64,000 nt of DNA from an uncultured Gammaproteobacteria bacterium (GTDB lineage Bacteria; Patescibacteriota; Patescibacteriia; 2-12-FULL-60-25), in NCBI GenBank assembly GCA_964551765.1, contig CAZKEE010000001.1, positions 33,458 to 97,457 of the forward strand. The letters run 5' to 3'. Below the pieces are notes generated by a model. That model saw nothing but the letters and a program-made list of their open reading frames with translations. It was not told where the DNA came from and did no database searches. Shown here in pieces: positions 9,041-12,024 of this stretch (position 1 is the first letter of the stretch; every line of letters starts with the position of its first letter). A program made the translations under genes and the position numbers.

Positions 9041-10318
9041 ATGCCTACCCCTAAAAAGGCCAAGATCGTCAAAAAGACCACCTCCCGCACCATGCCAAAA
9101 CCCAAGCAGGCCCCCAAGAAGTTCCAGGCGAACAAGGGCAAAAAGCCGCAACCGCAGAAAAAGCAAGGGAAAGCGCAAGGCAAAGGTCCGGTAAAACCCG
9201 TCAAACAAGGTCCATACGTCAAAACCCCGGCCCCCTCGGCCGAGATGTTGGATAAGCTGTTCGAGAAGGCCCGCACGCGCGGCTTCATGACCGAGAACGA
9301 GGTCTTGTACGCGTTTGGCGAGGTGGAGGACTATATCCCGACCTATGAGGCCTTCGTGGACCGCTTGGACGCCGCCGGCATCGGCATCGTAGAGATGAAG
9401 GAAGGTCTCTTGGGCCGCCAAAAGGAACGCGCCGAGGCCATGGAGGCCTTGCACAGCGCCGATGACAAGCGCGGCAAGGTGGACCCCTTCGACCTCACGG
9501 CTGATTCCATACAGATGTACTTGCGCGAGATCGGCAAGATCCCGCTCTTGACGGCGGAAGAGGAGATCGCGCTCGCCAAACGCAAGGAGAAAGGGGACAA
9601 GGAGGCGGACAAAAAGCTCATCGAGGCGAACTTGCGCCTCGTCGTGTCCATCGCCAAGAAGTTCATGGGCAAGTCGCTCTCGCTCTTGGACCTCATCCAA
9701 GAGGGGAATATCGGCCTGTTCCGCGCCGTGAAGAAGTTCGAGTACCGCAAGGGCTATAAGTTCTCGACCTATGCCACCTGGTGGATACGCCAGGCCATCA
9801 CGCGCGCGCTCGCCGACCAAAGCCGCACCATCCGCATCCCGGTGCACATGGTCGAGACCATCAACAAGTTCCAACAGATCGAACGCCAGCTCATCCAAGA
9901 CCTTGGCCGCGAACCGTTGCCCGAGGAGATCGCCGCCGAGATGGGCGAAGAGGTGGAGAAGGTCCGCCACATCATCAAGATCTCGCAAGACACCGTGTCG
10001 CTCGAGACCAGCGTGGGCGAGGATGACGAGGACTCGACGCTCGAGGACTTCATCGAGGACGTCAAGAACGTCACGCCGGACCGCGCCGCCGCGCTCCAGC
10101 TCCTCAAGGACTATGTCGGCGACATCATCAAGGACCTCTCGCCCCGCGAGCAAAAGATCCTCGAGATGCGCTTCGGCCTCACCGACGGCGTGAGCCACAC
10201 GCTCGAAGAGGTGGGCAAGGAGTTCGACGTCACGCGCGAGCGCATCCGACAGATCGAGGCCAAATCCATCGAACGCATACAGCAACACCCGCTCATCAAG
10301 AAATTGGTGGACTACTAG
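9041..10318 (+). CDS. rpoD: RNA polymerase primary sigma factor (sigma-70), Lys-rich N-terminal extension
   Basis: Regions 2-4 conserved ([33 protein letters not shown], ...). Canonical dnaG-rpoD arrangement. Confidence 0.9.
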
Positions 10319-10346
10319 ACGCGTTTTGCCTTGACGCATGCCGACG

Positions 10347-10378
10347 AAAGAGCTATCCCTAGGGATAGCTCTTTCTTG
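10347..10378 (+). terminator. Rho-independent terminator after rpoD
   Basis: Perfect palindrome agagctatccctagggatagctct followed by a T-rich tract. Confidence 0.65.
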
Positions 10379-10407
10379 GTCTTGCCTGGAACCGGAACCA
10401 ATGGAGG

Positions 10408-10989
10408 TTGGTCATGCGCAAAGTCGCCATTGCGAGGCATAGCAAGACGGCATGGAACGCCGCTTGCAAGATCATCGGTCAAGAAGACATCCCCCTCATC
10501 GCGGAAGGACGCATACAGTCCGCCGCCTTGGGACGGACGCTTCAGGGCTCCCCAGAGGTGCGGATCGAACATATCGTGACATCCGACCTGTCGAGAGCAG
10601 CTGAAACATCGTGCACCGTGGCGCAGGCCCTGGGCCTGTCGCGTGCGCGCATCCGCAAGGACGCGCGATTCAGGGAAGCGAACCTCGGACGCCTGCAAGG
10701 GAAGACGGCGGCCGAGATCGCGAGTACCCATGGTCAGGGCATCCTGCGACCGCCTTTCGATTTCACGCCCTTCGGCGGGGAAACGCATGAGGAGGTCGTC
10801 GAACGCATGGTCTCCGGCATGCACGATGTCGCGAGGCTTTCCGACCCGTCCGGGACGATCGCGACCGTCCTGGTCGTCAGCCACTCCTGGGCCATCGAGG
10901 CCTATCTCCGGCATCTCCTGGGAGAACGCGTCCAGCTCGGCAATGCCGAGTGGCGCATCCTGACCCTGCAGGACCCGCCGCCGCCCTAG
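10408..10989 (+). CDS. Histidine phosphatase family protein (phosphoglycerate mutase-like)
   Basis: RHSKTAWN catalytic His motif near the N-terminus. C-terminal VVSHSWAIEAY. Confidence 0.7.
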   Translation: MVMRKVAIARHSKTAWNAACKIIGQEDIPLIAEGRIQSAALGRTLQGSPEVRIEHIVTSDLSRAAETSCTVAQALGLSRARIRKDARFREANLGRLQGKTAAEIASTHGQGILRPPFDFTPFGGETHEEVVERMVSGMHDVARLSDPSGTIATVLVVSHSWAIEAYLRHLLGERVQLGNAEWRILTLQDPPPP

Positions 10990-11009
10990 CCCCATAAGGG
11001 GCTTTTTTT
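10988..11009 (+). terminator. Rho-independent terminator
   Basis: agcccc-ataa-ggggct followed by ttttttt. Confidence 0.7.
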
Positions 11010-11114
11010 AGCCAAGAAACACCCTTGCCAAGTCATCGATGACTTGGTAACTTACCGCTCGCCTCACAGGAGGCGAATATTCCGAGGTAGCTCAGCGGTA
11101 GAGCAGAGGACTGT

Positions 11115-11672
11115 GAACGCGTTTATCAGGGATTCGTAGAAAACTCTATGAAGAAAGATAAACGGACCTATGCCGAGCGTGCCGATTATCTCAAGAAGGC
11201 GGTCGTCAAAAGGCGGAAGAAGGTACGAGAGATGGCCATCGCATACAAAGGAGGTGTCTGCAGCATATGCGGATACGACCGATGCATGGGGGCCCTTGAG
11301 TTCCATCATCCCGACCCTTCGCAAAAGGATTTCAGCATCTCGATGGACGGACTGACGCGGTCATGGGACCGGGTCAAGAAGGAGATCGAGAAATGCGTCC
11401 TCATTTGCGCGAACTGCCATCGCGAGATACATGCCGGCATGACGCAGCTTCCGACGGTAACGTCGGATTGAAAATCGAGGTGAATTGCTGGAAGCCTACA
11501 GTCATCGATCGGATGACTACGGTGATCAGCAGCCAAGCCCTGGCATGGCCAGGGAAGGTTCAGAGACTATCCCGTACGGGAGTACATCGACGAAAGTCGG
11601 TGGAAGCGCCTCGCTCCGCCTAAGGCGGATGAAGATATAGTCCACCCCGTGCGGAAACGCATGGACAATGTG
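11115..11672 (+). mobile_element. Group I intron (about 558 nt) in the tRNA anticodon loop carrying an HNH homing endonuclease ORF
   Basis: After the ORF, TTCAGAGACTA (11559-11569) and GATGAAGATATAGTCC (11628-11643) match conserved P7/J6-7 and P7-P9.0 strands of group I ribozymes. Both candidate 3' splice sites end on G (11670/11672); the preferred 5' splice is after exon position 35 (11114), the alternative after U33 (11112). Candidate IGS ACAGTC at 11498-11503 would pair with exon GACTGT. Confidence 0.75.
11148..11471 (+). CDS. HNH homing endonuclease encoded within the group I intron
   Basis: 107 aa with CSICGY...LEFHHPDPS...CANCHREIH (HNH / zinc-finger motif). Confidence 0.85.
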   Translation: MKKDKRTYAERADYLKKAVVKRRKKVREMAIAYKGGVCSICGYDRCMGALEFHHPDPSQKDFSISMDGLTRSWDRVKKEIEKCVLICANCHREIHAGMTQLPTVTSD

Positions 11673-11720
11673 TAATCCTTTGGTCGTGGGTTCGATCCCC
11701 ACCCTCGGAGCCATGTATAG

Positions 11721-11772: not shown

Positions 11773-12024
11773 ATGCCTAAAAAATCCCTCGCCGGCGGGA
11801 CGGTGCACAAACTGCCGGATGACTTTCGGCAGGCCATCAAGTCCACGCCCGCGGTACTGGCCTTATGGGAAGACATTACGCCGCTCGCGCGTAATGAGTG
11901 GATCTGCTGGGTCACGGACGGCAAAAAAGCGGAGACGAGGGGCATCCGTATCACGAAAGCGCTCTCGAAGATGAAAGGCGGGATGCGGAGACCGTGTTGC
12001 TGGGCCGGGTGCACGCATAGATAA
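11773..12024 (+). CDS. YdeI/OmpD-associated family small protein
   Basis: 83 aa. DFRQAIKSTPAVLALWEDITPLARNEWICWVTDGKKAETR is typical of that family. Confidence 0.55.
   Translation: MPKKSLAGGTVHKLPDDFRQAIKSTPAVLALWEDITPLARNEWICWVTDGKKAETRGIRITKALSKMKGGMRRPCCWAGCTHR

Follow-up and report, generated by a model that had tools for sequence, protein, structure and literature searches.

The window analysed here is a 64,000-nt stretch of contig CAZKEE010000001.1 (assembly GCA_964551765.1). At positions 11081-11713 it carries, on the plus strand, a tRNA gene split into two halves, a group I intron between the halves and, inside the intron, an open reading frame (ORF) for a protein of the HNH endonuclease type. 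The 5′ half, TCCGAGGTAGCTCAGCGGTAGAGCAGAGGACTGT (11081-11114), comprises tRNA positions 1-35: the acceptor strand TCCGAGG, the D arm, the anticodon stem GAGGA and the loop nucleotides C32 U33 G34 U35, so that it ends in the anticodon loop as GAGGA-CTGT. The 3′ half, TAATCCTTTGGTCGTGGGTTCGATCCCCACCCTCGGAGCCA (11673-11713), comprises positions 36-76 (U36 A37 A38, the stem UCCUU, the variable loop, the T arm, the acceptor strand CCUCGGA, G73 and an encoded CCA); it opens with TAA-TCCTT and closes with CCTCGGAG-CCA. The halves are 558 nt apart, and their ends lie where the original prediction, made from the sequence alone, had put them. The intervening intron (11115-11672, 558 nt, IA-like) was delimited by a match to the Rfam family RF00028 and by comparison of junctions among homologs, and it terminates on G11672. 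Its ORF (11148-11471, 107 amino acids) was taken from the ORF list and matches PHROG 2255.

Default ARAGORN called zero tRNAs in the whole 64-kb window. When the exons were joined by cutting after U11114 and G11672, the product was a 75-nt cloverleaf that ARAGORN identified as tRNA-Asn(gtt). Thirty homolog loci were recovered from reference genomes, and most of the host tRNAs among the intron-bearing ones were likewise called as tRNA-Asn(gtt) with an intron. Without exception, homologs reaching a junction showed either the exon end CTGT or an intron-terminal G followed by TAA(C/T)C, the latter in all 13 sequences that cover the 3′ junction. Because the arrangement CTGT|...G|TAA fits all homologs, and the junction demanded by a tRNA-Thr reading (weighed below) does not, the split gene is, on these comparative junctions, tRNA-Asn(GUU), with the intron placed between nucleotides 35 and 36 of the anticodon (U35|...G|U36). 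The prediction of a tRNA-Asn(GUU) with a group I intron at 35/36 and an HNH gene was thus borne out by the RF00028 match, by covariation and by the junctions.

An Rfam scan, the check that had been proposed for the intron and whose failure was to count against it, returned RF00028 at 11377-11664 with 70.2 bits (gathering score 50, E 9.1e-16) over model positions 1-253, the full model. RF00028 was the sole Rfam family that reached its gathering threshold in the 64 kb. Two segments, TTCAGAGACTA at 11559-11569 and GATGAAGATATAGTCC at 11628-11643, correspond in the alignment to two conserved parts of this family, J6/7-P7 and J8/7-P7′. The window intron and 12 homologs were then aligned from the guide sequence through the terminal G, with P7 added as a pseudoknot. 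RNAalifold returned P2, P3, P4, P5, P6, P8 and P9 from this alignment. Standard pairs occupied 95.1% of cells (43 pairs in 8 helices across 13 introns) vs. 32-47% when the 3′ partners were slid by 1-3 columns. Compensatory changes, on both sides of the pair, were observed in 31 of the 43 pairs, and none of 500 shuffles matched any of the observed measures.

The helices of the core follow one another closely. The P2 hairpin UCCGACG-GUAA-CGUCGGA (11450-11467) shows compensatory changes in 7/7 pairs. It is followed by the 5′ strand of P3 (11475-11481), whose partner in the alignment is 11608-11613, with 4/6 pairs compensatory. The arm at 11485-11532 was placed by alignment and fold and contains P4 (11485-11491/11526-11532), P5 and a P5a hairpin (11500-11506/11512-11518). 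Folded alone, the P4-P5-P5a arm reaches -21 kcal/mol (z = -4.0), and its P5a stem AGUCAUC/GAUGACU shows covariation among close relatives. The P6 hairpin CCCUGGC-AUG-GCCAGGG (11538-11554) was read from the sequence, and the corresponding alignment helix has 4/5 pairs compensatory. The P8 hairpin UCCGCC-UAA-GGCGGA (11615-11629) was read in the same way; its homologous helix has 3/4 pairs compensatory, the window row being slightly out of register in this alignment (A1). The P9 hairpin CGUGCG-GAAA-CGCAUG (11648-11663) has 6/6 pairs compensatory.

Group I introns bind guanosine at a site within helix P7. In the window its 5′ strand GACUA (11565-11569) has as pseudoknot partner UAGUC (11638-11642), placed by the RF00028 alignment and by pairing, inside the conserved GAUGAAGAUAUAGUCC. 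This helix is 100% paired in the 13 sequences and shows one compensatory change among them, A-U to U-A in L002. Both P7 strands had been noticed beforehand and described as near-identical to the Tetrahymena type. The strands are present and align to RF00028, but the label was loose: they are generic group I core motifs, and the minimum-free-energy fold of 11565-11615 yields two hairpins between P7 and P3′ (11570-11602), P7.1 (11570-11573/11578-11581) and P7.2 (11585-11591/11596-11602). Such extra hairpins are the Michel-Westhof criterion for subgroup IA. By its predicted fold, the intron looks like a member of subgroup IA and not of the Tetrahymena type (IC1).

The P7.1/P7.2 insert (alignment A1 columns 192-237, window 11570-11607) is found in the window, L001, L006, L007, L011 and L018. 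L010 has a shorter version of it, and neither L002 nor any of the five archaeal copies has it. The periphery that defines the subgroup thus varies among introns that clearly belong to a single homologous lineage.

At the 5′ splice site, after U11114, the exon nucleotides C32-U33-G34-U35 and the intron nucleotide G+1 form the 5′ strand of P1 (11111-11115), as read from the pairing table. The 3′ strand is the internal guide sequence GCAGCU (11444-11449), directly 5′ of P2, whose G11444 pairs with U35 at the splice site. GCAGC(U/C) is unchanged in 13/13 aligned sequences and always lies immediately 5′ of P2. In the 11 of 11 loci that have both elements, the pairs G-C, U-A and C-G come next to a U(-1)·G wobble, the exon strand of P1 being so nearly invariant that a covariation test is impossible for this helix. 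In the window, G+1 adds a pair with C11443. The ORF-less homolog L006 has a simple P1 hairpin directly upstream of P2, made of the exon GGCUGU, a 7-nt loop and GCAGCU. In the window the HNH ORF fills the P1 loop and, over its final 28 nt, runs through the guide sequence into P2. The expectation that the ORF sits within a P1 extension holds, with the guide at 11444-11449 placing it in the P1 loop. The guide sequence had been sought elsewhere, at ACAGTC (11498-11503). That motif is present, but it was rejected as a guide: it lies inside the P5a stem, 3′ of P2-P4 and hence on the wrong side, in a region that is unconserved in homologs.

The guide is also translated. Bacterial intron-borne copies end in the C-terminal residues TQLP (ACG-CAG-CUU-CCG), with the guide sequence within these codons (window 11440-11471). 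In archaeal copies GCAGCU is read in a different frame, as (L)-A-A, and in L004 as part of K-L-A-A-S (L004:3296-3342). Since the motif is translated in different frames, conservation at the guide is at the RNA level and not at that of the protein.

The HNH protein carries the motifs C38-x2-C41, H53-H54 and C87-A-N89-C90-H91. The CxxC, HH and CxNCH motifs named in the original prediction are therefore confirmed, and C38, C41, H53, H54, C87, N89, C90 and H91 are invariant in 23 aligned family sequences, with H95 conserved in at least 90%; these positions include the catalytic His and Asn, the distal His and the two CxxC pairs for zinc that mark the beta-beta-alpha-metal (HNH) fold. The protein matched PHROG 2255 ("HNH endonuclease", E 3.9e-31) and PHROG 3106 (E 6e-28). 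A Pfam scan of the window ORF alone returned nothing at E ≤ 0.01, and an NCBIfam scan likewise gave no usable match; PF01844 was matched by 23/23 family members at E ≤ 1, with a best value of 8.7e-5. At least 462 homologs of the window protein were found. Its location inside a mobile intron and the patchy spread of this intron-endonuclease combination across phyla and domains would point to a putative homing function.

Taken with the junctions, these data make it highly probable that the element is a mobile group I intron of the IA type, inserted between U35 and U36 of the tRNA-Asn(GUU) gene of a Uhrbacteria-like member of the Patescibacteria. In the pre-tRNA, C32-U35 of the exon and the guide GCAGCU would form P1, the wobble between U35 and G11444 lying at the 5′ splice site. 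The P7 pocket would first bind free guanosine, which would attack after U11114, and would next be taken by the terminal G11672; joining of the exons would give a 76-nt tRNA-Asn whose anticodon is GUU and whose CCA end is encoded in the gene. The HNH nuclease encoded in the P1 loop would most likely cut or nick an intron-less tRNA-Asn gene near 35/36, and repair would copy the intron in (homing). Comparative sequence analysis establishes the exon/intron boundaries, the covarying helices, the position of the guide, the integrity of the ORF with its conserved catalytic residues and the host phylum. The window intron would self-splice by analogy with homologous Patescibacteria tRNA-Asn introns that splice in vitro (PMC13011429), and the endonuclease has a putative activity and a predicted target.

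Joining the exons with both sites two bases upstream (cuts after U11112 and G11670) would instead make the host a tRNA-Thr(UGU) with an intron at 33/34, again of 558 nt, again with a clean 75-nt cloverleaf, a U at -1 and a terminal G; both candidate 3′ junctions, G11670 and G11672, end on G, as had been pointed out beforehand. Both the window and L010 are called in this way, as tRNA-Thr(tgt) i(33,558), when ARAGORN is run in intron mode (-i). We rejected it on the comparative junctions and regard a threonine host as extremely improbable. The Thr reading requires TGTAA at the 3′ junction, which is missing in most homologs (L001 ATG|TAA, L002 AAG|TAA, L007 CCG|TAA), and the partner of the guide nucleotide G11444 is U35, not U33. 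The tRNA body has U1-A72 and G73, as in intron-less tRNA-Asn genes, with a top identity of 79%; this comparison is supporting only and does not discriminate alone, the pool holding no tRNA-Thr. The identical two-base miscall, Thr(UGU) 33/34, by ARAGORN/tFind is documented, and position 35/36 was confirmed for a homologous intron by sequencing of spliced products (PMC13011429). Hardly more credible, though slightly less remote, is that the main role of the HNH protein is to assist splicing, as a maturase or otherwise, and not DNA homing. A search of solved structures gave as its top match, a weak one, 6me0 (E 1e-3), in which the matched HNH domain belongs to a maturase/reverse transcriptase of a group II intron, and the overlap of the ORF with the guide and P2 could couple translation and folding. 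However, the ORF-less homologs L002, L006 and L009 (223-312 nt) retain a complete core, ORF-less Patescibacteria tRNA-Asn introns splice protein-free (PMC13011429), close protein relatives are free-standing outside introns, and the catalytic HNH residues are invariant.

Several observations count against an active, mobile IA intron. The window P1 is short (four exon pairs and one intron pair), an A×C mismatch occupies -5, and a P10 is not obvious; L010 and five distinct close relatives (six loci) share both the A31 exon and the guide sequence. The window copy of the HNH protein scores 15.1 bits for PF01844, below the gathering score of 21.4, and a Shine-Dalgarno-like sequence was not evident by eye upstream of the ATG of the ORF. 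The assignment to IA rests on the P7.1/P7.2 hairpins together with the published classification of the class. The P1 mismatch, the lack of a clear P10 and the sub-threshold Pfam score would suit a decaying relic, either a non-splicing ribozyme (and hence a tRNA pseudogene) or an intron immobilized by an inactive HNH protein and inherited vertically, and the rpoD-tRNA-Asn synteny with relatives fits vertical inheritance. We nevertheless consider a relic unlikely. Every core helix is intact and follows the covariation pattern, and the ORF is full length, has all the invariant family residues and is 78-84% identical to copies with the same intron layout. Mobility is needed to account for the presence of the same intron and endonuclease in archaea and in distant phyla, and there is no second tRNA-Asn within the 64-kb window.

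The element is, on its sequence, already known in kind: it adds one more case to a class that has been described and backed by experiment. Nakagawa et al. (mSystems 2026, PMC13011429; preprint July 2025) reported 15 tRNA-Asn(GUU) introns at 35/36 among 95 complete Patescibacteria genomes. In that article the introns belong to subgroup IA (25 of 28 introns at 35/36 were so assigned), four of these introns carry HNH (PF01844) genes, and GTP-dependent splicing in vitro was demonstrated, with sequencing of the ligated exons and a terminal G-to-C control, for a homologous tRNA-Asn intron (GCA_016700035.1). The window intron shares with the Patescibacteria tRNA-Asn(GUU)/tRNA-Asp(GUC) 35/36 introns the host gene, the site, U(-1), the terminal G, the phylum (in which the class is enriched, though it is not confined to it by definition) and an IA-type core. 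Common to both as well are an HNH gene when the intron exceeds 500 nt, and a tRNA gene that default finders miss and that ARAGORN miscalls as Thr(UGU) 33/34. As far as the class is described there, nothing essential differs; the window genome is another one, apparently outside the 95 complete genomes. What is added here is that the ORF lies in the P1 loop and overlaps the guide and P2, a point that goes unmentioned in the accessible text. Earlier, Williams (bioRxiv 2020, 10.1101/2020.01.27.920355) had raised the number of intron-split bacterial tRNA types from 4 to 21, and the Asn class of that work is cited as "Asn.4Ug" in PMC13011429. The original remark that an Asn(GUU) 35/36 insertion is not a classic case holds as far as the four classic cases go, but Williams (2020) later catalogued the class and experiments have validated it (PMC13011429).

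Other tRNA introns resemble the element less. Bonocora and Shub are said to have reported in 2001 that the cyanobacterial tRNA-fMet(CAU) group I intron encodes the PD-(D/E)XK endonuclease I-Ssp6803I. The subgroup of that intron is IC3. It is likewise a group I intron in the anticodon loop of a bacterial tRNA with its own endonuclease and with the tRNA gene as target, but it differs in the tRNA, the site (33/34), the endonuclease fold and the phylum. The classic IC3 introns (Anabaena/plastid tRNA-Leu(UAA) at 34/35, Azoarcus tRNA-Ile(CAU) and Agrobacterium tRNA-Arg(CCU) at 36/37) are, unlike the window intron, ORF-less and without P7.1/P7.2, and they occupy other positions. I-HmuI and I-TwoI are HNH endonucleases of phage group I introns, and phage intron enzymes of this kind are typically nicking. 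Phage group IA introns with HNH genes (I-PfoP3I, PMC3428280) have in common with the window intron a small HNH enzyme in a peripheral loop; they reside in phage protein-coding genes (DNA polymerase, nrdE), whereas the window intron is in a cellular tRNA gene. T4 SegB, in a tRNA gene cluster (PMC2330249), is free-standing and of the GIY-YIG type, and the window copy is intron-internal and of the HNH type. The pairing of PD-(D/E)XK with tRNA-fMet is listed in PMC13011429.

The split gene is flanked by genes for a primary sigma-70 factor (9041-10318) and a histidine phosphatase (10408-10989) on one side and for an OmdA/YdeI-family protein (11773-12024) on the other, with a terminator-like hairpin (10988-11003) between the phosphatase gene and the tRNA gene. 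The named relatives of the window RpoD reach 91% identity and come from Ca. Uhrbacteria or the Patescibacteria group, and the closest named HNH homolog (84%) is from Ca. Uhrbacteria. By these protein relationships the host is a Patescibacteria, Uhrbacteria-like. The loci of four HNH homologs (78-84% identical; L032-L038) have the same layout, with introns of 547-563 nt. An rpoD-like gene lies upstream of the split tRNA-Asn in the window (9041-11713), L034, L035 and L038, and sigma-70 genes are nearby in L032 and L033. The shared rpoD-tRNA-Asn synteny fits vertical inheritance of the intron in a Uhrbacteria-like clade.

Upstream of the tRNA, by 34 nt, is a perfect 20-nt palindrome, CCAAGTCATCGATGACTTGG (11028-11047). 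Its arms, AGTCATC/GATGACT, are shared with P5a (11500-11518), and these are the sole two occurrences in 64 kb (0.00 expected). The palindrome was dropped as a conserved functional partner of the intron, being absent from the five closest relatives.

Among the 30 homolog loci, a group I core was found beside the HNH gene in 13 (L001-L004, L006-L012, L018), and L005 is an intron-split tRNA-Asn. Outside Patescibacteria, HNH-bearing Asn 35/36 introns were present in metagenome-assembled genomes (MAGs) of Planctomycetota (Sedimentisphaerales, Phycisphaerales; L007:2927-3578 and L018:2927-3577, the contig of the latter being 2.5 Mb long), as well as in one MAG of Desulfobacteraceae (L011:1-570 with L016:2951-3189, both contigs being broken inside the HNH ORF). 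In the survey of complete genomes (PMC13011429), HNH-bearing 35/36 IA introns were in Patescibacteria only.

The HNH gene is not always inside the intron. The tRNA-Asn introns of L002:3001-3800 (312 nt), L006:2510-3282 (268 nt) and L009:982-1653 (223 nt) are ORF-less, and an HNH gene lies just outside these tRNA genes, on the upstream side in L002 and on the downstream side in the other two. In an unbootstrapped neighbor-joining tree the free-standing HNH copies fall among the intron-borne ones, which weakly suggests repeated moves of the gene into or out of the intron. Four Solirubrobacterales (Actinobacteria) MAGs (L013:3001-3368, L014:3001-3395, L015:3001-3390, L017:3001-3365) have a free-standing HNH gene with 44-54% identity, 40-65 bp from an intron-less tRNA-Asn(gtt). 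All 16 of the more distant HNH relatives, these four included, lie within ~100 bp of tRNA genes. The small free-standing HNH genes of L019-L030 (e.g., L024:3001-3344, L021:2769-3374, L027:1156-1481) adjoin tRNA-Pro(tgg) in five loci and lie between two tRNA-Met(cat) genes in three; others are beside tRNA-Phe or tRNA-Arg(tcg). By genomic position, the distant relatives look like a family of tRNA-gene-associated endonucleases. Zeng, Bonocora and Shub reportedly put forward in 2009 a "collaborative homing" model for free-standing endonucleases beside their targets.

Two further inserts were observed beside such HNH relatives. At L026:2449-2764 (minus strand) a tRNA-Met(cat) carries a 244-nt group I intron (RF00028, 72.9 bits). 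At L028:3462-3749 a tRNA-Asp(gtc) carries a 213-nt insert that ARAGORN called an intron and that has no RF00028 match at the gathering threshold.

To our knowledge, the introns of archaeal tRNA genes are all of the bulge-helix-bulge type, which a protein endonuclease cuts out. A tRNA-Asn 35/36 intron with the same HNH family was found on Woese-/Pacearchaeota MAG contigs, at L004:2951-3534, L005:2950-3518 and L012:2945-3586; L008 and L009 are further DPANN cases. The exons of L004, L005 and L012 look archaeal, with G1-C72 and no encoded CCA. Directly upstream are, in conserved order, the genes for aIF-2beta, DUF424, aIF-1A and the universal archaeal KH protein arCOG04150, and because these adjoin the intron-bearing gene in that order the contigs are genuinely archaeal. 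All 39 of the archaeal group I introns of Nawrocki et al. (2018) are in rRNA genes, and the lone "Pacearchaeota" case of Williams (bioRxiv 10.1101/2020.01.27.920355) was dismissed there as mis-binning. The searchable literature gave us no earlier record of a group I intron in a tRNA gene of an archaeon. On balance we lean, by a small degree, towards a lineage wider than the published one, which would include the first group I introns of archaeal tRNA genes, a transfer between the candidate phyla radiation (CPR) and DPANN, and a series of free-standing HNH genes leading toward the association of endonuclease and intron.

The value of the window locus lies mainly in annotation. Default finders miss the gene and intron-aware ARAGORN labels it Thr(UGU), and because it is missed or mislabelled the genome would be scored as lacking tRNA-Asn. 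The same issue was raised for estimates of Patescibacteria genome completeness in PMC13011429. The biology of the element is established, and the present analysis contributes nothing to the class, as described there, beyond where the ORF lies with respect to P1, the guide and P2. Of more interest than the locus itself are its archaeal and free-standing relatives. These data suggest that (i) archaeal tRNA group I introns, if true, would bear on an old proposal (cited in Nawrocki et al., 2018) that bulge-helix-bulge introns descend from group I introns; and (ii) free-standing HNH genes beside intron-containing tRNA-Asn, intron-less tRNA-Asn and other tRNA genes may provide a natural series for the association of an endonuclease with an intron.

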